NCBI GenBank assembly: GCA_964522435.1
Contig: CAZFUL010000001.1
Location: forward strand, 117,075 to 181,074
DNA: 64,000 bases
Origin: an uncultured Gammaproteobacteria bacterium
Lineage (GTDB): Bacteria; Patescibacteriota; Patescibacteriia; Magasanikbacterales; UBA922
Direction: 5' to 3'
Part shown: one piece after another, positions 17,394 through 30,288 of the stretch
How the letters are laid out: each line of letters begins with the position of its first letter
Position numbering within the stretch: position 1 is the first letter of the stretch
The notes under the pieces: generated by a model
Told to the model about the DNA's origin: nothing
The model's database searches: none
Seen by the model: only the letters and a program-made list of their open reading frames with translations
Translations under genes and position numbers: made by a program

Positions 17394-17445
17394 CAATTAA
17401 CAATGAACAATTCTTTAAAATTTTTGTTAATTGCTAATTGTTAAA
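17392..17445. promoter_or_regulatory. Perfect 12-bp inverted repeat agcaattaacaa / ttgttaattgct spanning the gatA stop and the LOG start
   Basis: Seen in sequence. AT-rich TTAATTG-type repeats lie between the arms. Confidence 0.3.
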
Positions 17446-18782
17446 TGTTAATTGTCTCTATGGATAAACAATATAGCTTTGGATTAAATGAAACAGGCAA
17501 CTACCGCGAACCGTGGCAGATTTTTCGTATCATGTCTGAATTTGTGGAAGGTTACCAATTTTTAAGCACGCTCAAAAAAGAAGTGACCATATTAGGATCT
17601 GCGCGCTTTTTACCTCATCAAGAATATTACAAAGTTGCGCAAGAGTTAGGCGCACTGCTCGGAAAATCTGGCTATAACACGCTTACTGGTGGCGGACCAG
17701 GGATTATGGAAGCAGCAAACCGTGGTGCGTTTGAAGTAGGGGGAGAATCTATTGGCTTAAATATCGAACTCCCGCTTGAACAAAAACTCAGTCCTTATGT
17801 AAAAAAGTCTGTATCGTTTTCGTACTTTTTTACTCGCAAAGTCATGTTAACTTCACCCGCACATAGTTTTGTGTTTTTTCCCGGAGGCTTTGGGACCTTA
17901 GACGAATTTTTTGAAGTAGTCGACCACATGGATATTGGCAAAATGAGTGAAGTGCCCGTTATTTTGGTAGGAAAAGAATATTGGGAACCCTTGGTTGCCT
18001 TTTTAGAAGATCGCTGTTGTGCGCATGGAACAACCTCGCATACCCGTATTCAATCATGGAAAATCGTTGAAACGGCAGAAGAAGCCTTTGCCCTTATTCA
18101 AGAACATGGAAAAGAAGCAAATAATTGCGAGCTTTCTCCCGCGCGCTTTCATAGTGGAGAATATGATGTGGATTGGAAAGTATTCCGCATTATGGCAGAA
18201 CTGGTGCAAGGCTTTGAGTTTTTAACCGGATTAGTAGAAGACGTCACCGTGCTTGGGACAAAATCCATGGAGCCAACAAATCCTTTTTACGAACAGGCGT
18301 ATCAATTAGGTCGTTCTTTAGGCGAAAATGGCTATGCCGTGGTTACCGGAGGAGCAACGGGCGTTGCCGAAGCAGCAAACAAAGGAGCCATGGCGGTCGG
18401 TGGAGAATCCATTGGGATTGGTATGGAAGTAGAAGGGGAGAATCGCTTAAACGAATTTGTGAATCGTTCTATTACCTTTAAATTTCCCTTTACCCGTAAA
18501 CTTATTGTCACGGCGCCATCCAAAGCCTTTGTCTTTTTTCCTGGTGGATTTGGTACCTTGCATCAACTGTTTGAAGTATTAACCTTAATACAAACCGGCA
18601 AAATGCCTCGCGTGCCAATTATTTTATTTGGAGAAACCTATTGGCAAGGGGTTGATGACTTTATTCGCAATGTGTTGTCTGAACGCTTGCAAACCATTAA
18701 TGTAGAAGATACCAAACTCTATACTATTGTTGATTCTGTAGAAGACAGCCTTACCCTTATTAATGATTTTCGGGGGAAATAA
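17445..18782 (+). CDS. Tandem LOG-family (TIGR00730 / Rossmann-fold nucleotide-binding) protein
   Basis: Two copies of GGGPGIMEAANRGA and PGGFGTL(D/H)E motifs. 445 aa. Confidence 0.75.
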   Translation: MLIVSMDKQYSFGLNETGNYREPWQIFRIMSEFVEGYQFLSTLKKEVTILGSARFLPHQEYYKVAQELGALLGKSGYNTLTGGGPGIMEAANRGAFEVGGESIGLNIELPLEQKLSPYVKKSVSFSYFFTRKVMLTSPAHSFVFFPGGFGTLDEFFEVVDHMDIGKMSEVPVILVGKEYWEPLVAFLEDRCCAHGTTSHTRIQSWKIVETAEEAFALIQEHGKEANNCELSPARFHSGEYDVDWKVFRIMAELVQGFEFLTGLVEDVTVLGTKSMEPTNPFYEQAYQLGRSLGENGYAVVTGGATGVAEAANKGAMAVGGESIGIGMEVEGENRLNEFVNRSITFKFPFTRKLIVTAPSKAFVFFPGGFGTLHQLFEVLTLIQTGKMPRVPIILFGETYWQGVDDFIRNVLSERLQTINVEDTKLYTIVDSVEDSLTLINDFRGK

Positions 18783-18785
18783 TAT

Positions 18786-18876
18786 TGGCGGAAGGTGAGG
18801 GATTCGAACCCTCGATACCCTTTCAGGTATACCACCTTTCCAAGGTGGCGCACTCGACCAACTATGCGAACCTTCC
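18786..18876 (-). tRNA. tRNA-Ser (anticodon GGA), class II with long variable arm, CCA encoded
   Basis: Manual cloverleaf: acceptor GGAAGGT/ACCTTCC, D-stem GCA/TGC, anticodon stem CCACC/GGTGG with loop TTGGAAA, variable arm ATACC-TGAAA-GGGTAT, T-arm GAGGG-TTCGAAT-CCCTC. Confidence 0.85.
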
Positions 18877-19241
18877 GTAAGTGTGACTAAGACTATCACA
18901 AAAAGGGAGCAAAATCAACTCCAAGACAGCTGCTTTTAGGCGGTGATTTTTATTGTTGAAGAATAGGGGAGAATTTGGTAGGATGGGGGAAGGTATATTC
19001 CCTCGCAAAAGCCGTCGAGTTAGTATTCGGAGCTACTGTGTAGTCGTTAAAATGTATAATGATTTCGTATAAGAATGAGTTATCTGAAATATTCCTTTTC
19101 TTTTCCGACGATAGTCGGTTGTTTTAAAAATTTTCAAATTTCTTTTTCCAATGGGGGGTTCCTATTGGAAAAATTATTTTATAGGGGAATAAAGAGGTGT
19201 CCCTCCGTATAATCGGCGGGACGATTATCTAAAATATAAAC

Positions 19242-20048
19242 ATGATTCCACCAAACTATAAAAGCTACTTTGAAATAAACCACTCTAATATTGAACGAGT
19301 GCAAATCTTTTTAAGTAGCAAATATATTTTCACTATCGGGATTTACAAAAAGGAAATGGGATTTTACATTGATTTTCCTAAATTTAACAAGTCAAACACG
19401 ACAGTTGCAAAATATATATTGCCCAAAGGACAAAGCTATATTGAAAAACTTGATCCCACGGCAACCGAACAAAAAAATATTTGTCCGAAATTAAGTTTTC
19501 ATGAATCAGGCTGGGTACTACTATCCAAGAGCGGATTTTTCTTTGATAAAACAATATCTCGCCAAAAAACCAATGATTCAATATTTAAAAATGATGGTAC
19601 GCACGTATTTACCATATCATTGCAAAATCCTAATTTTCTTCCCGACGAACCTCCTGCGATGAAAACACGCACCCGTGATATTGCATTACCGTCTTCTCCA
19701 CTTCCTAATGCAATCAAATTCGTAGGAAATTTATGGAAAAAGAGTGATCTTCAAGAAAGTTTTAAAGAATTTGGAATGCTAAAAAATGAAACTGAGTATC
19801 CCATAATATGGCCACGCAACGATGGAAGTAATTTGGGTGATATTGTGTTCATATTAAAATTTTGCCACTTAGTAGATTCAGAACCACTTTATTTGAGTGT
19901 CCGATGTATGATTATTCCAATTATGGATAAAGAATATTCAAAAGGAACTTTATTGACGTTGATGAGTGGCTTCATTTTTGGTGATGTGATCAATACTGAA
20001 AAAGAGACTGATTTCATCAGTTTTATTGCAAAAAGAGAACGAAATTGA
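19242..20048 (+). CDS. Hypothetical protein (268 aa), first gene of the defence island
   Basis: ATG ORF with no recognisable motif. Lies between tRNA-Ser and the HTH/methyltransferase genes. Confidence 0.5.
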   Translation: MIPPNYKSYFEINHSNIERVQIFLSSKYIFTIGIYKKEMGFYIDFPKFNKSNTTVAKYILPKGQSYIEKLDPTATEQKNICPKLSFHESGWVLLSKSGFFFDKTISRQKTNDSIFKNDGTHVFTISLQNPNFLPDEPPAMKTRTRDIALPSSPLPNAIKFVGNLWKKSDLQESFKEFGMLKNETEYPIIWPRNDGSNLGDIVFILKFCHLVDSEPLYLSVRCMIIPIMDKEYSKGTLLTLMSGFIFGDVINTEKETDFISFIAKRERN

Positions 20049-20100
20049 CATAAAGTAGGCAGAAGAGTAACCTACATTAAAACATATACATTATATTGGT

Positions 20101-20310
20101 ATGCCAAATACAAAAAATACTATTGCAAAAAACATTAAACGTTTGCGAACTGAACAGCAATTATCGCAGGATCGTTTATCAAAATTAGCCGACCTTTCTT
20201 TGAATACGATTGTTACTGTTGAAAGTGGTGCGAATGAAAATCCCACAATCGATACACTAGTAAAAATTGCATCTGCTTTCGGTGTTGGTGTAGATGATTT
20301 AATGAAATGA
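20101..20310 (+). CDS. XRE-family HTH transcriptional regulator (69 aa), possibly a controller for the adjacent R-M genes
   Basis: HTH_3 pattern IKRLRTEQQLSQDRLSKLADLSLNTIVTVESG. Stop is 2 nt before the next ORF. Confidence 0.75.
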   Translation: MPNTKNTIAKNIKRLRTEQQLSQDRLSKLADLSLNTIVTVESGANENPTIDTLVKIASAFGVGVDDLMK

Positions 20311-20311
20311 T

Positions 20312-20980
20312 ATGGCCAACCAGATCATTTCAAAAAAACGTGTCACAGATCATGGTGAAGTGTTTACTTCTGAGCGAGAAGTGAATGCTATGCTGGATCT
20401 TGTAAAACAGGAAACAGAACGTATAGAATCTCGTTTTCTGGAACCTGCGTGTGGTACAGGTAATTTTTTGGATCCAATTCTTAGAAGAAAACTAGAAGTT
20501 ATAAGTAAGCGATATAAAAAAAGTCAGTTGGAATTTGAAAGAAACGGTGTCGTTACGATTGGGAGTATTTACGGTGTCGATATTTTACATGACAATGTCG
20601 TAGAGTGTAGAAACAGGTTGTTTGGTATCTTTGATTCTTGCTATACTGAATTGTATAAGAAAAAATGCACAGATGAATATCGTCGTGTTATACGTTTTAT
20701 TTTGGAGAGAAATATTTTACTTGGAGATGCACTAACACTCAAGACAGTGGGAAGTAAATCAGAGCCAATCGTATTTTCTGAGTGGTCTCTTGTGAGAGGG
20801 AGTGATATCAAACGTAGAGATTATGCCTTTGCTGAATTGATTCCAAATCAATCAAAAGAAAGTACATTATTTACTACAACACAAGTGTCCGATACAGGCT
20901 CTCCTGTATTTATACCAGAACCAAAAACTGAATTTCCTTTGACGCATTTTCTAAAATTACCGTATGAGACTACCCACTAA
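20312..20980 (+). CDS. N6-adenine methyltransferase N-terminal module only (motif X GEVFTS and motif I EPACGTGNFL, no NPPY): truncated paralog or accessory subunit
   Basis: Motifs read from the translation. Overlaps the full methyltransferase by 17 nt. Confidence 0.5.
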   Translation: MANQIISKKRVTDHGEVFTSEREVNAMLDLVKQETERIESRFLEPACGTGNFLDPILRRKLEVISKRYKKSQLEFERNGVVTIGSIYGVDILHDNVVECRNRLFGIFDSCYTELYKKKCTDEYRRVIRFILERNILLGDALTLKTVGSKSEPIVFSEWSLVRGSDIKRRDYAFAELIPNQSKESTLFTTTQVSDTGSPVFIPEPKTEFPLTHFLKLPYETTH

Positions 20981-22469
20981 CTACAATCCAGACGTACTCA
21001 CATGTTTGGCGAACTTGAGTAACGACGAGGTATTTACACCTCCTAGTTTGGTCAATGAGATTCTCGATCTTTTACCAAAAAAAATTTGGAAAAATAAACA
21101 TGCTAAATTTCTTGATCCTGTGACTAAAACAGGCGTATTTCTCAGAGAAATAGCAGCTCGATTGATTGATGGTCTTGAAAAAGAGATACCAGACAGACAA
21201 GAACGAATCAATCATATCTATACCAATCAGCTCTACGGTATTGCAATTACAGAACTCACTGCACTGCTTGCACGACGAAGTGTGTACTGCTCCAAAATAG
21301 CAAACGGAAAATACTCTATCTGTACGGAATTTACAGACGAACAAGGAAATATCCGTTTCAACAGGGTAGAGCATGAGTGGCAAGGAGAAAAATGTCGATA
21401 CTGTGGAGCAAGTAAATCAGAATATGATAGAGAAGATGCACTCGAAACACACGCCTATGAGTTTATTCATACCGATGATCCAAATAACTTGTATAACAAT
21501 ATGAAATTTGATGTCATCATTGGAAATCCACCGTATCAATTGAGTGACGCTGGACACGGTAGAAGTGCAAGTCCTATCTATCATAAGTTTATTGAGCAAG
21601 CGAAAAAGATGAATCCAAGGTATTTGACGATGATTATTCCTGCTCGTTGGTTTGCTGGTGGAAAAGGGCTTGATGAATTTCGTTCTGAAATGCTCGGTGA
21701 TAAGCGTATCCGAAGAATGGTAGACTTTGAAAATTCAAATGATGTATTTTCTGGTGTTGATATTGCTGGTGGTATTTGTTATTTCCTTTGGGATAGGGAT
21801 AATACGGGACTGTGTGAAGTAACTAATTTTATCAATGGTAAAGTAGAAAGTTCTTTGCGATATCTTGATGAGTTTCCAATTTTTATCCGTCATAGTAACG
21901 CAATTCCGATTATCAAAAAAGTGCTTGCAAAAAAAGAAAATGGTGGTAAGAATTTGAGTTCTGTGGTTTCTTCTCGAAAACCATTTGGTCTCCCCACAAA
22001 CTATCCACCAAAAAATTCTGGTGTACCTTGTTGGTTTATCCAAAAAATAGGTCTTAAATACGCAAGTAAAAAAGACGTTATCGATGATGTGGGGTTGTTG
22101 GATAAATGGAAATTGTTAATTCCTCCTGCTCCTATTGCTGGACAAACTGATTTTTCTAAACCAGTAGGCTTTTATTATGATGGAAATGTAAAAATAGCGA
22201 AACCGGGTGAGTGTTGTACTGAATCTTTTATTGTGGGTGGTGCTTTTGATACTAAAAAAGAAGTAGAATCGTTCAAAACATATTTGTTTACAAAAATTGT
22301 TCGATTTTTACTTTTACAAACAGTTGTATCCCAACATGTCACTAAAGATAAATTTATTTTTATACCAGATATCGGCAAATATGAGGGTGTTTTTACAGAT
22401 GAAATGTTATGTAAGCGATGGGGTATAACAAAAGACGAATGGAAGTTTATTGATTCACGCATTAAATAG
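20964..22469 (+). CDS. N6-adenine DNA methyltransferase, gamma-class, Eco57I-like
   Basis: Motif X EVFTPPSLVNEILDLL, motif I FLDPVTKTGVFL and motif IV NPPY (VIIGNPPYQ). C-terminal Eco57I-like region. Confidence 0.8.
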   Translation: MRLPTNYNPDVLTCLANLSNDEVFTPPSLVNEILDLLPKKIWKNKHAKFLDPVTKTGVFLREIAARLIDGLEKEIPDRQERINHIYTNQLYGIAITELTALLARRSVYCSKIANGKYSICTEFTDEQGNIRFNRVEHEWQGEKCRYCGASKSEYDREDALETHAYEFIHTDDPNNLYNNMKFDVIIGNPPYQLSDAGHGRSASPIYHKFIEQAKKMNPRYLTMIIPARWFAGGKGLDEFRSEMLGDKRIRRMVDFENSNDVFSGVDIAGGICYFLWDRDNTGLCEVTNFINGKVESSLRYLDEFPIFIRHSNAIPIIKKVLAKKENGGKNLSSVVSSRKPFGLPTNYPPKNSGVPCWFIQKIGLKYASKKDVIDDVGLLDKWKLLIPPAPIAGQTDFSKPVGFYYDGNVKIAKPGECCTESFIVGGAFDTKKEVESFKTYLFTKIVRFLLLQTVVSQHVTKDKFIFIPDIGKYEGVFTDEMLCKRWGITKDEWKFIDSRIK

Positions 22470-22477
22470 TTTTTTGT

Positions 22478-24994
22478 ATGATCAATCAAACTTTTTTCCC
22501 GCTTCGTCCAGAAGCTAAACCAACAATATATGTGTACAGATTCAAAGGTGTTAATACGCATGAAGGTCTTCTGAAAATTGGATATACTACGAGAAATGCT
22601 AAAGATCGTATCGCTGAACAGCTCACTACGAGTCGCCTTGAGCATGAAATTATTCTTGAAGAATCGGCGATGAGAAATGATGGTACTGCGTTTAGTGATC
22701 ACGATGTACATAGATATTTACGAAAAAACAATATTGAGCATGTAAATGGTGAGTGGTTCCGCTGTACGCTCAAAGATGTGAAATCTGCACTTGTAGCTAT
22801 TAAGTCCGGTGCCTTGAATGTAGAAAATAGAACACAGACTTTTGGTCTTCGCCCAGAACAAGAAAAGGCTATAGAAAAAACAATTACCTATTTCAAAAAT
22901 GTTAAAAAAGAAGGTGATAATAAAACACCACACTTCTTGTGGAATGCAAAAATGCGTTTTGGGAAAACATTTACTTCGTACCAGCTTGCAAAGAAAATGA
23001 ATTGGAAACGAGTACTCGTACTCACATTTAAGCCAGCAGTACAAAATGCGTGGGAAGAGGATCTCAAATCCCATGTTGATTTTGAAGGGTGGCAGTTTAT
23101 CTCACCAAATAGTCTCTCATACGAAGACGCTGATAAAGATAAACCACTTATTTGTTTTGGTTCATTTCAAGATTATCTGGGAAGAAACAAAAGTACAGGT
23201 GGTATTAAAACCAAAAATGAATGGGTACACACAACAAATTGGGACTGTGTCATCCTCGACGAGTACCACTATGGAGCGTGGAGAGAAAACGCAAAAGACT
23301 TGTTTGAGGCTGAAGAAAAACGTGTACAGCAAGATGAAGAGGGGGAAGGGCTTGAGTACTTTAGTGAAAGTGAAATGCCTATTACTACGGGGGCGTATCT
23401 GTATCTGTCGGGTACACCGTTCCGTGCGATTGCATCTGGTGAATTTATCGAAGAGCAAATTTTTAACTGGACATATTCAGATGAACAGCGTGCCAAAGAG
23501 CTGTGGCAAGGGGAGAATAACCCCTACGCATCACTACCTCGCATGGTGATGATGACCTATCAATTGCCCGATACTATTCGTGAAATTGCAATGGGTGGAG
23601 AGTTCAACGAGTTTGATCTCAACCTCTTTTTTTCAGCAGATGGGAAAGAAGAGCAAGCTCGCTTTACCTATGAAGATGAAGTTCAGAAATGGCTTGATCT
23701 GATTCGTGGGTCGTTTCAAGAGACAACAATTGATAACTTGAAACTTGGTGCAAAAAAACCACCACTTCCATTTTCTCATGCTCCGTTGCTGAGTGTATTG
23801 ACTCACACATTTTGGTTTTTACCGAGTGTGTCCTCTTGTTATGCGATGAAGAATCTACTCCAATCGAGACAAAACAAATTTTATAATGACTATAAAATCA
23901 TAGTAGCCGCAGGTAACAAAGCAGGGCTTGGTGCAGATGCACTCGAGCCTGTAGTCAAGGCGATGACACCTCCGCTTGAAACAAAAACAATTACACTCTC
24001 ATGTGGAAAATTAACGACGGGTGTTTCGGTAAAACCATGGACGGGTATTTTTATGTTGCGAAATTCTTCTAGTCCTGAAACATATTTTCAAGCCGCTTTT
24101 CGTGTACAGACACCATGGACGATCAAAAATCCAGACGGTAAGTCTCCTGATGAAGAAATGATACTCAAAAATGAGTGCTATGTGTTCGATTTTGCACCTG
24201 ATCGCGCGCTCCGACAGATTGCTGATTATAGTTGCCGTTTGAGTGTAGGGGACAAGAACCCAGAACAGAAAGTAGCAGAGTTTATCCATTTTTTGCCCGT
24301 TCTTGCGTATGATGGGAGTGCGATGAAACAGATTGATGCGGCTGGTATCTTGGATATGGCGATGAGTGGAACGACAGCGACACTGCTCGCTCGTCGTTGG
24401 GAAAGTGCCCTACTTGTAAACGTCGACAACTATACACTCAAACGCTTGATGGACAATGAAGATGCGATGAACGCCTTGATGAATATCGAGGGATTCCGCA
24501 GTCTCAATGCTGATATTGAAACGATTATCAACAAGTCAGAGGCTGTCGAAAAAACAAAAAAAGAAGCAAATGATAGAGAACTCACCAAAAAAGAAAAACA
24601 AGAACTCTCTGAGCAAGAAAAAGAGTATAAGATCGTGCGTAAACAGATTCAAGAGAAACTCATCAAGTTTGCTACTCGTGTGCCTGTTTTCATGTATCTG
24701 ACAGATTATCGTGAGAGAACTCTCAAAGATGTGATCACCCAATTGGAGCCTGGACTATTCAAAAAGGTCACTGGTTTAAGTGTGAAAGACTTTGAACTGC
24801 TAGTAAGTCTCAATGTGTTCAATAGTGCCCTCATGAACGATGCTGTATATAAATTTAAGCGATACGAAGACGCTAGTCTTAGTTATGCTGGTATCAGTAA
24901 GCACGAAGGAGAAAGTATTGGTCTGTACGACACTGTGATTCAACGAAGTGAGTTTGATCAGGTGTTTGAGAATACGGTAAAGTTGCAAACGTAA
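22478..24994 (+). CDS. T5orf172 (GIY-YIG-like) domain fused to ResIII / SF2 DEAH helicase (838 aa): putative restriction/translocase subunit
   Basis: N-terminus IYVYRF...GLLKIGYTTRNAKDRIAEQL...GEWF (T5orf172 hallmarks). LRPEQEKAI with Walker A FGKTFTS and motif II ILDEYHYGA. About 400-aa C-terminal region of unknown function. Confidence 0.75.
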   Translation: MINQTFFPLRPEAKPTIYVYRFKGVNTHEGLLKIGYTTRNAKDRIAEQLTTSRLEHEIILEESAMRNDGTAFSDHDVHRYLRKNNIEHVNGEWFRCTLKDVKSALVAIKSGALNVENRTQTFGLRPEQEKAIEKTITYFKNVKKEGDNKTPHFLWNAKMRFGKTFTSYQLAKKMNWKRVLVLTFKPAVQNAWEEDLKSHVDFEGWQFISPNSLSYEDADKDKPLICFGSFQDYLGRNKSTGGIKTKNEWVHTTNWDCVILDEYHYGAWRENAKDLFEAEEKRVQQDEEGEGLEYFSESEMPITTGAYLYLSGTPFRAIASGEFIEEQIFNWTYSDEQRAKELWQGENNPYASLPRMVMMTYQLPDTIREIAMGGEFNEFDLNLFFSADGKEEQARFTYEDEVQKWLDLIRGSFQETTIDNLKLGAKKPPLPFSHAPLLSVLTHTFWFLPSVSSCYAMKNLLQSRQNKFYNDYKIIVAAGNKAGLGADALEPVVKAMTPPLETKTITLSCGKLTTGVSVKPWTGIFMLRNSSSPETYFQAAFRVQTPWTIKNPDGKSPDEEMILKNECYVFDFAPDRALRQIADYSCRLSVGDKNPEQKVAEFIHFLPVLAYDGSAMKQIDAAGILDMAMSGTTATLLARRWESALLVNVDNYTLKRLMDNEDAMNALMNIEGFRSLNADIETIINKSEAVEKTKKEANDRELTKKEKQELSEQEKEYKIVRKQIQEKLIKFATRVPVFMYLTDYRERTLKDVITQLEPGLFKKVTGLSVKDFELLVSLNVFNSALMNDAVYKFKRYEDASLSYAGISKHEGESIGLYDTVIQRSEFDQVFENTVKLQT

Positions 24995-25259: not shown

Positions 25260-25640
25260 TTAGCCTTTCTTGAAATCGTTTCTTCCGACAATAAGTGAAA
25301 TCAATATTGCTGCAGATAATATGAGTCGATACCATACTGTGGTGCCTACTTGTGACAGATCGAGTAGGTGTGTTACTAACCCAAGGCTTACAAGTATTAA
25401 ACCAAGTGTATAAGCCCAATGTTTTGCTTTGAGCAAAAAACAGCCGATCAAAATACCTATAACGGCGGATATAATGTTGATGATTTGGGTCAACTCATTC
25501 GCCGTAGCTTGGAGACTTTCTGGTTCTATGGATGAGGGAGAACTTGTTAGATTTGTGAACGTGACAATCAAATTAATCAATCCTGCTATCATGAAGAGGC
25601 CTGCAGCAACTTTGATAGGGGAGGAAAGAGTATTACTCAT
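25260..25640 (-). CDS. Hypothetical small polytopic membrane protein (126 aa)
   Basis: Hydrophobic segments. ATG ORF on the minus strand between the helicase gene and the mrr cassette. Confidence 0.5.
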   Translation of the reverse strand: MSNTLSSPIKVAAGLFMIAGLINLIVTFTNLTSSPSSIEPESLQATANELTQIINIISAVIGILIGCFLLKAKHWAYTLGLILVSLGLVTHLLDLSQVGTTVWYRLILSAAILISLIVGRNDFKKG

Positions 25641-25765: not shown

Positions 25766-26653
25766 TTAAGTTTCTTCAAAAAAGTCTTCGTCTATTTCTT
25801 TTACTTCGTATTTATTTTTAACTTGTAACCCCACTCCATATTCGTGCATTAAATCAACAAGTTTTTTGCCGTCAATGAGTATTATCGAATGATGTGCCTC
25901 TCTTGCTTTGTGTATGGCAGATTCATCGAAAGAAGAAGTCGTGACAAAAACTCCTTTACTTGTATCTCCGCTCATTGCTCCTATAAAATTACGAATCTCT
26001 TTTTCTCTTATTTTATTTTCATTATAACGCTTAGCTTGGATATATATTTTTGCTAGGCCTAATTTGTCTTCGTTAATAATACCATCTATTCCTCCATCAC
26101 CACTTTTCGAAGTTTCGATAAAATCTCCGTAGCCCATCTTATTTAATAGTAGCAAAACAACTTTTTCAAAATAATAAGGGTCTATTTCTTTAAGTCTTTC
26201 GAGAAGCTCATTTTTGACTTGCTTTTCAATAGCACTAAATCCCGAGTCAATCATATCTTGCGGAGAAGCATTTTCATCTTCCAAATCTATTTCAGAATCT
26301 TTTTCTTCTTTTTTTGCTTCCCTATGCGCTTGAAAATCAGGATCGTTAATTAAATCTGATAATGTTAAATTTCCACTCTTTACAACTTTTAAACCTTTTT
26401 CCGATATTTTTACCATCGCTCTTTCTGGTTGTTCAATCATTTTTGCCTGTTTGAGATATGCTTTTCCCCAGCCAATTCTATTTAATATTAGAATGTCTCC
26501 ACTCTTCGTCTTTTTTTCTAATAATTCTTCGCTCAAATTTGAATAATATTCATCCCGAACACGCTTTCGTAATTCGTTGTAATGTAAAATTTGACCATCG
26601 CTCAGTACGTTTAATATTGGTATAAATGTTTCGTGATATTTTGGTAGATCCAT
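25766..26653 (-). CDS. mrr: Mrr-family restriction endonuclease (type IV, modification-dependent)
   Basis: N-terminal winged-helix Mrr_N and C-terminal Mrr_cat motifs GDGGIDGI...IQAKRY. 295 aa. Confidence 0.8.
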   Translation of the reverse strand: MDLPKYHETFIPILNVLSDGQILHYNELRKRVRDEYYSNLSEELLEKKTKSGDILILNRIGWGKAYLKQAKMIEQPERAMVKISEKGLKVVKSGNLTLSDLINDPDFQAHREAKKEEKDSEIDLEDENASPQDMIDSGFSAIEKQVKNELLERLKEIDPYYFEKVVLLLLNKMGYGDFIETSKSGDGGIDGIINEDKLGLAKIYIQAKRYNENKIREKEIRNFIGAMSGDTSKGVFVTTSSFDESAIHKAREAHHSIILIDGKKLVDLMHEYGVGLQVKNKYEVKEIDEDFFEET

Positions 26654-28127: not shown

Positions 28128-28131
28128 AACA

Positions 28132-28164
28132 AAAACCCTATACCGTTCTGGTACAGGGTTTTTG
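28132..28164 (+). terminator. Rho-independent terminator (ccctgtacc.../ggtacaggg + T-run)
   Basis: aaaaaccctataccgttctggtacagggttttt. Confidence 0.55.
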
Positions 28165-28238
28165 AATTGCTCCGACGGGGGTGGGGAACTGCCGAAGCAA
28201 TTCATCCGCGTCGTCGGGGCGGAACTCCTTGTTTGTCG

Positions 28239-28760
28239 TCAGGGGGTCCCTGTATTGTACGGGTCAAGGAAGATGAACCGTTCTTCTTTGGGATAGTACC
28301 CTGGGTATACCGTCCAGACCGTGAAGTGCCATTGCTGGTTGCGCTCTTTGCGCATCCGAACTTTCATGGTGAGTTGGGTAGTTTTTGGAGCCAGGATGAG
28401 CTCCTTGGGGAGGACGGGAATCCCGGATGACGGCCTTCTCAGCTGCTGTTGCAAGTATGGCTGGGTGGGGACACGGGTCACCCAGCCAATATGGCGGGGA
28501 AGACTCAGGGTGATCGAATGATCTTCTTTACCCCGTTCAATTGCGCTGCGCAGGGCCGCGCCCAAGTGTGCAGCAACCTCTTGGTCATCGACGCAGGCTT
28601 GCAGGTTTGGCCAGGCAGAAATATTTCCGGCCAGTGGAGCGCCTGCCAGACGGAAATGGTCAGTTTGTACCTGGACTATGGTCTCGTGGGGAAAGATGAC
28701 CTTGACCACCGGTGCGCCGTCCGGTCCCATAGGAAGGATCAGATATTTGGCGAAAAGCAT
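28239..28760 (-). CDS. Hypothetical protein (173 aa) in GC-rich islet C
   Basis: RBS aaggaa upstream of the ATG on the minus strand. GC about 55%. The + strand ORFs here are shadow ORFs. Confidence 0.45.
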   Translation of the reverse strand: MLFAKYLILPMGPDGAPVVKVIFPHETIVQVQTDHFRLAGAPLAGNISAWPNLQACVDDQEVAAHLGAALRSAIERGKEDHSITLSLPRHIGWVTRVPTQPYLQQQLRRPSSGIPVLPKELILAPKTTQLTMKVRMRKERNQQWHFTVWTVYPGYYPKEERFIFLDPYNTGTP

Positions 28761-28772
28761 GAACGTTTCCTT

Positions 28773-29375
28773 TCAGTTGTTGTGTTTTTTGTTCATGTGG
28801 CGAATTGCGATTGCCACACTGCCGTTGCCCATCACCCCGATGAGGATGGGGTGTACGAGGGATACCAGTTGTTGCTCTGGCTGCCAGTGGATGACCAGGT
28901 TCGTAGTCATGATCATATACGACACCACCGCAATGTACCAGGGCAAGATGTTTTCTTTGTTGCCTTTGAGTACACCGAGGACGGTGGGAATGAACGATAG
29001 CACATATACTGCTTGAAGCAGCAAGTTGGCCATTACATCATCACCGCTGGTACGCCAGTAGTAGACAATGACGCCGGCGATTGCCAGAATCATCCATTCT
29101 GTTGGCCCGATTTTGCTAAAGCGCTTGTTGAACGCTGCGTAGCCAAGGATCAAAAGCGATCCGAGGCATGCTGCGCCAGTTGCTGCCCAGCGGCTCAGGT
29201 CACCATCTACCACTTTGAAATAGGTGACTGAGTTGACCACATTGACGCTGCCCCAAATTGCCCAGGTTGCGGCGTTTGGGGTGATATTGCCCTTGATCAC
29301 GTAGTACAGGTACATGCTGAGCAAGAGTAGCACACCCGACATTGAAATGAGTGAAAGAATATCAATGAGCGCCAT
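28773..29375 (-). CDS. Hypothetical polytopic membrane protein (about 200 aa) in GC-rich islet C
   Basis: RBS aaggag 6 nt upstream of the internal ATG (MALIDIL...). The longer ORF to 29429 was rejected as an upstream extension. Confidence 0.45.
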   Translation of the reverse strand: MALIDILSLISMSGVLLLLSMYLYYVIKGNITPNAATWAIWGSVNVVNSVTYFKVVDGDLSRWAATGAACLGSLLILGYAAFNKRFSKIGPTEWMILAIAGVIVYYWRTSGDDVMANLLLQAVYVLSFIPTVLGVLKGNKENILPWYIAVVSYMIMTTNLVIHWQPEQQLVSLVHPILIGVMGNGSVAIAIRHMNKKHNN

Positions 29376-29427
29376 TGCAGGCTCCTTTGTCTGACGTTTT
29401 TCTTGGCAGAGACTAGAATAGAACATC

Positions 29428-30288
29428 ATGATTTTAATCAGTTGTCAATATAGCGTATGTATGGGAAAATATTCGTATATGCGTGATACCACACACAACA
29501 GAGCATGGGTACGAAACATCGGTATTGTCTGTTTTATTTTTATCCAATTCTTGGGAATTGCCATTAATCTTATAAAGCAGCAAGATTGTTATAAACAAGA
29601 GCAGTCCATAGAGCAACAGTTTTCCAGCAGGCAAGAAGGAGATGTTCGTGTATTAAAAGAAGATATGCTCAATCATTTTGATTGTGGCATGTCGTTTGGC
29701 GTGCCTGCGCCTATTGTCTATGTCAAAGATGATACAGGCAGTGTTGGGGTATTGCCTCAAAGTATTGTGTTTAATATTGTGCTCTATGCTGCCGTTTTTT
29801 TTGCGGTTATGCGTGGGTATGCCTTGTTCAAACAACAGCGCTATACGCGTGTAGGTGTGGAAAGCATATTGTGTATTGTGGGATTGTTTATTGCTGCTAT
29901 ATTATTGCAATTATCGTTTCGGTATAGTGGGCTTATGTATACCGGAGGGCCTGTAATACGATTTCCTTCGTTGATACCATCAACACAGTCGTTTGTGGAT
30001 ATAGGGGCTGAGTATGTGTTTTATGTTCTTACTATGCTTGCCGCAGGATTTTTTTCTGTATATACCTGGTATGGTTATGCGGCAATTATTTTTTTATATC
30101 TTGTATTATTTGGAATCGTTGTATACCGGATACAAAAAATATATATACCACTCTCATATAAAAAATTGTTGACCTGGGGAATTGTTGGATTTATTTTTTT
30201 CTATCTTTTTATGTCGTATAGTGCGTTTATTACGCAAGGGGTGGTTGATCTGAATTGTTTACATAACAATAGTGGTTGTGACGGCTAG
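29428..30288 (+). CDS. Hypothetical polytopic membrane protein
   Basis: ATG ORF with multiple hydrophobic segments. Start uncertain. Confidence 0.5.
   Translation: MILISCQYSVCMGKYSYMRDTTHNRAWVRNIGIVCFIFIQFLGIAINLIKQQDCYKQEQSIEQQFSSRQEGDVRVLKEDMLNHFDCGMSFGVPAPIVYVKDDTGSVGVLPQSIVFNIVLYAAVFFAVMRGYALFKQQRYTRVGVESILCIVGLFIAAILLQLSFRYSGLMYTGGPVIRFPSLIPSTQSFVDIGAEYVFYVLTMLAAGFFSVYTWYGYAAIIFLYLVLFGIVVYRIQKIYIPLSYKKLLTWGIVGFIFFYLFMSYSAFITQGVVDLNCLHNNSGCDG

Follow-up and report, generated by a model that had tools for sequence, protein, structure and literature searches.

Five open reading frames (ORFs) follow one another on the plus strand of a 64,000-nucleotide stretch of contig CAZFUL010000001.1 (assembly GCA_964522435.1; the whole stretch is called the window below), at 19242–20048, 20101–20310, 20312–20980, 20964–22469 and 22478–24994. 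Their products, of 268, 69, 222, 501 and 838 aa, respectively, were taken in a preliminary description of the bare sequence for a restriction-modification (R-M) system in which a methyltransferase is partnered with a translocase-nuclease in a combination outside the textbook classes. The locus raises two questions: which of the five genes form a system, and whether its architecture is really a new one. According to our analysis, the interval 20312–24994 encodes an intact three-subunit R-M system of the DrdVI family, a reading to which we give a probability of about 0.85; family membership taken by itself we regard as very probable.

Gene composition and order of the system

The last three ORFs encode the subunits M1, M2 and R, with the following domains (AdoMet, S-adenosylmethionine; SF2, superfamily 2).

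20312–20980, plus strand: M1, 222 aa, AdoMet-binding half-domain with motif X HGEVFT (aa 14–19) and motif I LEPACGTGNF (aa 43–52)
20964–21788, plus strand: M2 catalytic part, aa 1–275 of 501; Eco57I PF07669, E 3.6e-42; NPPY at aa 188–191
21789–22469, plus strand: M2 variable C-terminal region (aa 276–475), then a more conserved tail (aa 476–501)
22505–22822, plus strand: R, GIY-YIG-superfamily (T5orf172/MUG113) nuclease domain, aa 10–115
22835–24157, plus strand: R, SF2 ATPase/translocase core (ResIII), aa ~120–560
24158–24994, plus strand: R, mainly helical C-terminal region, aa 561–838

The extent of the system was judged from 80 loci fetched from species-representative genomes plus several more, 85 loci in all, which were searched locally with the window proteins. 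R was matched in all 85 by construction, M2 in 77 and M1 in 68, and almost all of the loci with no M1 or M2 match have too little upstream DNA. Wherever M1 (62 loci) or M2 (64 loci) is full length, it precedes R and the genes run M1-M2-R, and this order, with overlapping or near-abutting genes, is kept in 62–64 loci from many phyla; M1 usually overlaps M2 by 4–29 nt. The tight packing noted earlier in the window is borne out (junctions in order: a 52-bp gap, a 1-bp gap, a 17-bp overlap and an 8-bp gap), and the lengths of the three window proteins, 222, 501 and 838 aa, compare with family medians of ~224, 504 and 839 aa.

Judged by this conservation, the core unit is made up of three genes, M1 (20312–20980), M2 (20964–22469) and R (22478–24994). 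A system of five genes, with the 268-aa ORF and the gene for an XRE-family helix-turn-helix (HTH) protein as integral components, is suggested by the window itself, where all five are co-directional and closely spaced and the HTH stop codon lies 1 bp ahead of the M1 start. This proposal is nevertheless hardly tenable. The 268-aa ORF was found in none of the 85 related loci and its nine known homologs never adjoin a DrdVI-type module, and it was rejected as a component; the HTH gene was matched by homology in a single one of the 85 loci, on the opposite strand, and is missing from most of them. Neither gene accompanies the system on pDrdVI (Deinococcus wulumuqiensis NEB 479, NZ_CP031164).

Assignment to the DrdVI family

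REBASE lists DrdVI as Type IIG: its methylase is split, and a GIY-YIG endonuclease domain is part of "a fused translocase and REase". The literature describes DrdVI in the same terms and mentions M1.DrdVI and M2.DrdVI (PMC4996451). On pDrdVI, a 212-aa "DNA methyltransferase" and a 539-aa Eco57I methylase precede the R homolog. The window locus has all features of the family: an R with N-terminal GIY-YIG and SF2 domains, an Eco57I-type M2 with NPPY, an M1 without NPPY, and the order M1-M2-R. In pairwise comparison, M2 is 47% identical to M2.DrdVI over its full length (E 2e-167) and M1 is 41% identical to M1.DrdVI over 206 aa (E 4e-50); R is 56% identical over 838 aa to the DrdVI protein, the product of the pDrdVI helicase gene.

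Two members of the family have been typed, DrdVI (GCAGCC) and MaeIV (GCACY, Methanococcus aeolicus), both with N6-methyladenine (m6A) modification; for the former, M1-2.DrdVI cloned in E. coli ER2796 gave m6A at GCAGCC (PMC6430315). The window locus shares with both of them the three genes in the same order, an M1 of ~215 aa in the typed members, an Eco57I M2 with a variable C-terminus, and an R combining GIY-YIG and SF2 domains. It differs from DrdVI in the variable region of M2, only 32% identical, and in the upstream XRE HTH gene, absent on pDrdVI. The host differs as well; as a guess, the best named homologs of M1 and of the 268-aa ORF would point to Patescibacteria. Since REBASE already names a family with exactly these three genes in this domain order, with two typed members and thousands of homologs, the claim of an unclassified architecture fails. 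The preliminary description had itself pointed to a well-described family with the same domain order as the finding that would overturn it, and to a large extent such a family exists: it is catalogued, but its mechanism is not well described.

The family is abundant. A word-indexed search with R yielded at least 8000 clusters at 90% identity (all 8000 candidates lay below E 1e-5), and the best 120 of these matches are 75–80% identical to the window R. For M1, homologs again amount to at least 8000 clusters, and the best 120 are all ~220–230 aa long. An exhaustive search of 50%-identity representatives with R returned 4259 matches at E ≤ 1e-3, of which 1146 reached E ≤ 1e-30. Relatives of R are also encoded in at least 595 stretches of species-representative genomes. 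The hosts, bacteria and some archaea, include members of Bacteroidota, Verrucomicrobiota, Planctomycetota, Cyanobacteria, Chloroflexota, Patescibacteria, Proteobacteria, Thermoplasmata and Woesearchaeota.

A minority of the R relatives, 1300–1460 aa in length, are R-M2 fusions; on Enterococcus plasmids, a 1445-aa ResIII + Eco57I protein is preceded by a separate 248-aa M1-like gene. When the HMM and PADLOC checks suggested at the outset were run, the Pfam domain calls held, and the nearest PADLOC model was that of a fused Type IIG enzyme, PDLC03626 ("REase_MTase_IIG", 1359 positions). R aa 120–757 align with its positions 154–801 and M2 with positions 863–1315; the model also matches DrdVI R, DrdVI M2 and the Enterococcus fusion. 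Assignments to MADS, BREX PglX, Hma and Type I/III were rejected, as they were represented by weak, sub-threshold methylase-motif matches only.

The split methyltransferase

The 222-aa M1 had been regarded as a truncated methyltransferase N-terminal module. It turns out to be a conserved, full-length subunit of a split methylase, found in 62 full-length copies upstream of M2, and split methylases with an M1 subunit have been described (PMC6430315, PMC10113651). Its motif I is canonical, and it has no NPPY. In alignments of the related loci (63–82 sequences), HGEVFT and FLEPACGxGNF are invariant. The N-terminus of M1 is paralogous to that of M2 (34% over 77 aa, E 4e-7). An AlphaFold2 (AF2) model of M1 (pLDDT 81) has three Rossmann strands with helices, followed by a beta-hairpin, and in Foldseek it gave weak partial matches only (E ~0.1, TMq 0.33), to N-terminal parts of the CamA, BsaXI, BrxX and LlaGI methylases. 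These weak, model-based matches would fit a half-domain and leave its function unexplained.

M2 had been called a complete Eco57I-like gamma-class N6-adenine methylase with motifs X, I and NPPY. The PF07669 match and the NPPY support this, but motif I is atypical: it reads DPVTKTGVF (aa 51–59; 21114–21140), with lysine K55 in place of the first G of the gamma-class motif. K55, G57 and GNPPYQ (aa 187–192) are invariant across 65 sequences, and the conserved blocks of the protein are NPDVLTC..ANLSNDEVFTP, FLDPxTKxGVFLRE and GNPPYQ. The K55-bearing motif I of M2, set against the canonical EPACGTGNF of M1, may be related to why the methylase is split.

The median identity of M2 to its relatives is 69% for aa 1–275 versus 33% for aa 276–475, and the latter is the only hypervariable segment found across M1, M2 and R by sequence comparison, which would be in keeping with one TRD serving both methylation and cleavage, as in Type IIG in the broad REBASE sense. 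Identity within it is bimodal: in three loci (L053, L065, L074) it reaches 82–85%, in most others it is 24–39%, and in DrdVI 32%. Because such low, bimodal identity stands against a conserved catalytic part, the segment behaves like a target-recognition domain (TRD), which we infer it to be. With 32% identity to DrdVI in this region, the specificity of the window system is probably not GCAGCC. Counts of GCAGCC and GCACY sites in the window were discarded as uninformative, because the putative TRD differs from those of the typed members.

The R subunit

The Pfam matches of the 838-aa protein (T5orf172 E 1.2e-8, MUG113 E 1e-8, ResIII E 5.7e-9) agree with its earlier reading as a T5orf172 + ResIII protein. 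So does the position of the nuclease, an N-terminal GIY-YIG domain instead of a C-terminal PD-(D/E)xK module, as the protein has no Pfam match to the PD-(D/E)xK family. Residues I17, Y18, Y20, K33, G35, T37, R44, H78, G91, E92, W93 and N114 of the nuclease domain are invariant in 65 homologs. The motor core has Walker A GKT (162–164), motif II DEYH (261–264), motif III SGT (311–313) and motif VI QAAFRVQ (538–544), and in the same homologs G162-K163-T164, D261-E262-Y263-H264, S311-G312-T313 and Q538..R542..Q544 are invariant.

These motifs bear on the question of whether the enzyme uses ATP at all. Both REBASE and the authors who worked on DrdVI filed it as "IIG" (PMC6430315), and the nearest PADLOC model carries the same label, which would suit a classical ATP-independent Type IIG/IIS-like enzyme that cuts at a fixed offset and keeps its SF2 domain only as a scaffold or regulator. 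We consider such an enzyme improbable: GKT, DEYH, SGT and QxxFRxQ are all invariant across the 65 homologs, which come from distant phyla, and authors from New England Biolabs call R a translocase (PMC4996451). The label itself is broad, since Blow et al. (2016) used "Type IIG-like" for the permutations in which endonuclease, methylase and translocase are grouped about one recognition module, so that it stands for a system with one TRD in all, whether or not a translocase is present (PMC4752239). An ATP-driven DrdVI-family enzyme remains the reading that we follow.

The C-terminal segment of R, aa 561–820 (24158–24937), is the most conserved part of the system, with a median identity of 84% across phyla; within R, conservation is lowest in the nuclease domain (median 52%). 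For aa 561–838, where AF2 confidence is low, neither Pfam nor the PDB gave a match. Because the region lies between motor and methylase in the fused R-M2 relatives, we interpret it as a putative coupler or docking region for the methylase. The protein as a whole is 72–78% identical across phyla, suggesting strong purifying selection along its entire length.

Structure prediction of R, one of the checks suggested initially, was successful in part: aa 10–115 were modelled with confidence (pLDDT 83–90), but the rest poorly. In Foldseek, the model matched generic SF2 motors (Chd1/ALC1, LlaBIII, XPB, EcoR124I HsdR) at TM ~0.15, a weak corroboration in view of the poor model. PDB sequence and profile searches with R, M2, M1 and the fused Enterococcus protein gave nothing significant; a match of R to NAP1 in the PDB search was dismissed as a spurious coiled-coil hit.

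Comparison with other R-M types

The earlier interpretation of the locus as an R-M system of a methylase and a translocase-nuclease holds, and its likeness to Type III and Type ISP systems is reasonable as an analogy; by definition, though, it belongs to neither. Like the Type ISP enzymes LlaGI and LlaBIII, the system has the order nuclease, SF2 motor, putative coupler, gamma-class N6-adenine methylase and putative TRD, together with, presumably, an asymmetric site and modification of one strand, and the fused R-M2 relatives reproduce the single-chain layout of that type. Weak fold links point in the same direction, LlaBIII being among the fold matches of R and the LlaGI methylase among those of M1. 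The differences are that Type ISP enzymes are single chains with an Mrr/PD-(D/E)xK nuclease and no M1, whereas the window encodes three polypeptides with a GIY-YIG nuclease and an extra M1. No sequence-level similarity was found between the window proteins and the Type ISP structures 4XQK or 5FFJ.

Type III systems pair a beta-class Mod methylase, whose TRD is central, with a Res subunit that has its PD-(D/E)xK nuclease at the C-terminus. The window locus resembles the Mod/Res pair of EcoP15I in having a separate methylase, an SF2-nuclease with ResIII-type motifs and, presumably, an asymmetric site and one-strand protection. Its methylase, in contrast, is gamma-class, of the Eco57I type and split in two, with the motif order X-I-NPPY and a C-terminal variable region; its nuclease is an N-terminal GIY-YIG domain, and the C-terminus of R has no PD-(D/E)xK-family Pfam match. 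No Type III PADLOC model was matched by the window proteins.

A third group with a comparable triad is YeeA(DnmA)-YeeB-YeeC/OspHL35III, which combines a gamma-class N6-adenine methylase with TRD, an SF2 helicase and a T5orf172/GIY-YIG nuclease, and YeeABC-type triads were predicted to be an R-M variant as early as 2009 (PMC2731913, PMC4752239, PMC9973331). There, a single-chain MmeI-family methylase is accompanied by separate helicase and nuclease proteins; in the window, the methylase is split and Eco57I-type, and a single 838-aa protein combines nuclease and helicase. The MmeI_Mtase matches of the window proteins, at 19–20 bits, are below the Pfam cut-off of 27 bits.

Proposed mechanism and its weighing

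By analogy, the most plausible mode of action for the locus is that of Type ISP or Type III enzymes. M1 and M2 would act jointly as a site-specific N6-adenine methyltransferase and mark a short asymmetric site, as shown for the prototypes. M2 is expected to supply the NPPY catalytic centre and, judging by motifs and conservation, the variable TRD, and M1 the canonical AdoMet-binding half-domain or an activating partner surface. At an unmodified site, R would dock on M1-M2 through its conserved C-terminal region and would use ATP for translocation or long-range communication along double-stranded DNA, as its domain content and the likeness to Type ISP/III enzymes suggest. Its GIY-YIG domain would then nick the DNA. 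As this domain has a single active site, two complexes would probably have to converge before both strands are broken, in the manner of the Type ISP collision model. Such a requirement would explain how methylation of one strand protects the host: only one strand of GCAGCC contains an adenine, so modification must be confined to that strand, as in Type III, ISP and IIL/MmeI-type systems. To the details of cleavage by translocation and collision we would give even odds.

Several points weigh against this interpretation. Cleavage, ATPase and phage-restriction data for any DrdVI-family member are absent from the searchable literature, and the papers found report M1 and M2 in co-expression only. 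The AF2 model of R, built from 65 homologs (~76% identity), is poor (pLDDT 51, pTM 0.35), and sequence and profile searches found no PDB relative of R that would fix the class of its motor. For the HTH protein, no operator or C-box was found, nor a convincing palindrome beyond a 5-bp GTAGG/CCTAC pair noted by eye. Finally, the analogous dnmA-yeeB-yeeC of B. subtilis gives no phage protection (PMC9973331), although its homologs from Vibrio crassostreae are reported there to have an antiphage effect.

The B. subtilis result leads to the possibility that the locus is a decayed or non-restricting relic, in which the methylase serves as an orphan or epigenetic regulator and R is inactive, as proposed for dnmA-yeeB-yeeC; that methylase/helicase/T5orf172 cluster had neither an antiphage nor an anti-transformation effect (PMC9973331), and in Bibersteinia trehalosi the genes of a DrdVI-like type are broken into fragments and have lost activity (PMC4996451). 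For the window copy, we find this explanation unlikely. All three ORFs are full length relative to the family medians, all catalytic residues of their products are conserved, and the 72–78% identity of R across phyla implies strong purifying selection. As far as can be read from the sequences, M1, M2 and R are full-length proteins with all catalytic motifs intact, in agreement with a functional DrdVI-type system.

The XRE regulator, neighbouring genes and genomic setting

Both flanking elements named in the preliminary description were located in the window, and the HTH product was confirmed as resembling a controller (C) protein by its HTH_3 and R-M "Control_protein" matches.

18786–18876, minus strand: tRNA-Ser(GGA)
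20101–20310, plus strand: XRE-family HTH, 69 aa; HTH_3 E 1.6e-11; PADLOC HTH_VI E 4e-11 and R-M "Control_protein" E 2e-10
25766–26653, minus strand: Mrr, with Mrr_N + Mrr_cat, E 6e-35

The XRE HTH protein is probably the local C protein of the operon. It would delay the expression of R upon arrival in a new host, as in other controller-protein R-M systems. Promoter-like sites upstream of the gene are at chance level (21 versus 22.3 expected). In other loci, HTH proteins made up two of ten sampled small ORFs directly upstream of M1, and one locus (L079) shares the HTH_3 arrangement of the window. By this distribution, an XRE-type regulator is an occasional accessory rather than a core component.

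The 268-aa ORF (19242–20048) has no match in Pfam, PADLOC, NCBIfam or PHROGs. Its nine homologs were found among 5.8 billion sequences and are 42–86% identical; one comes from a metagenome-assembled genome of Candidatus Magasanikbacteria. They lie beside DpnI, beside a ParB-methylase with a serine recombinase and LexA, and beside DUF3644, Fic and HigB, that is, in variable or mobile contexts. Mrr was matched, weakly, in one of the 85 related loci. The 268-aa ORF and Mrr are separate neighbours of the R-M genes in a small low-GC island (GC 0.37 across 18.9–28.1 kb versus 0.41 in the flanks). The island lies on the 5' side of the tRNA-Ser gene. No integrase was found with it, and a search at k=13 for att-like direct repeats derived from the tRNA-Ser gene gave none, so no integration scar was identified.

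Other elements of the surroundings include a hairpin at 19143–19173 on the plus strand, between tRNA-Ser and the 268-aa ORF, with a 14-bp stem, a 3-nt loop and a T-rich tail, which looks like an intrinsic terminator. A 126-aa DUF7144 protein (E 2e-6) is encoded between the R gene and Mrr at 25260–25640 on the minus strand. Just upstream of tRNA-Ser, 17445–18782 encodes a 445-aa protein with two LOG/SLOG-type domains (Lysine_decarbox E 5e-59, LDcluster4 E 1e-34). Directly after the low-GC island follows a short GC-rich segment (28130–29500; GC 0.52 versus a background of 0.41) with two minus-strand ORFs that have no Pfam match, 28239–28760 (173 aa) and 28773–29429 (218 aa); this segment may be a separately acquired piece.

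The DrdVI-like loci of other genomes vary in the genes that they take up. In ~40% of them, 0.3–2.8 kb of extra genes lie between M2 and R, among them YhcG/DUF1016 (L012, L028, L052), RhuM (L031, L035, L058) and Bro-N (L038, L040); DUF1016 and RhuM have also been reported from within Type I R-M operons, between core genes (PMC9881135). In one locus, a second Eco57I-type M2 paralog stands in tandem (L084:5608–6999), which hints at dual specificity. AbiEi-like and AbiEii genes stand directly upstream of M1 in three loci (L001:2538–4249; L002:3760–5747; L003:270–2257). Downstream of an 80%-identical relative (L090:5001–12283) are a Shedu-type protein (SduA_C), an AAA_15 + RloB pair and a Fic protein. 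In other genomes, DrdVI-type modules are located in defence islands.

Conclusion

The locus adds one more intact copy to a family of R-M systems that is catalogued and highly mobile; it has a Type IV Mrr as a neighbour, and its architecture is already known. Annotation pipelines give its products generic labels ("GIY-YIG nuclease family protein", "DEAD/DEAH box helicase", "SAM-dependent DNA methyltransferase"), and for this reason those who read the sequence alone keep meeting the DrdVI family as "unusual".

A bolder proposal is that DrdVI-type systems form a class of their own among ATP-dependent R-M systems. M1 would then be an indispensable partner with no catalytic activity of its own, a pseudo-methyltransferase needed to complete or activate M2 with its degenerate motif I (K55). 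The last 270 residues of R, so strongly conserved, would represent a coupler fold not seen before, and two single-site GIY-YIG nickases, joined by translocation, would make the double-strand break. We regard this as doubtful at present. No publication on these features was found, despite the occurrence of the family in at least ~600 species genomes and thousands of clusters, and the open literature searched holds no biochemical or structural description of the DrdVI family.

The residual interest therefore lies in the DrdVI family, whose cleavage mechanism and M1 role are unpublished in the searchable literature, rather than in the window locus. Establishing the mechanism of one member, including the role of M1, the dependence on ATP and the rules of site orientation, would annotate thousands of loci.

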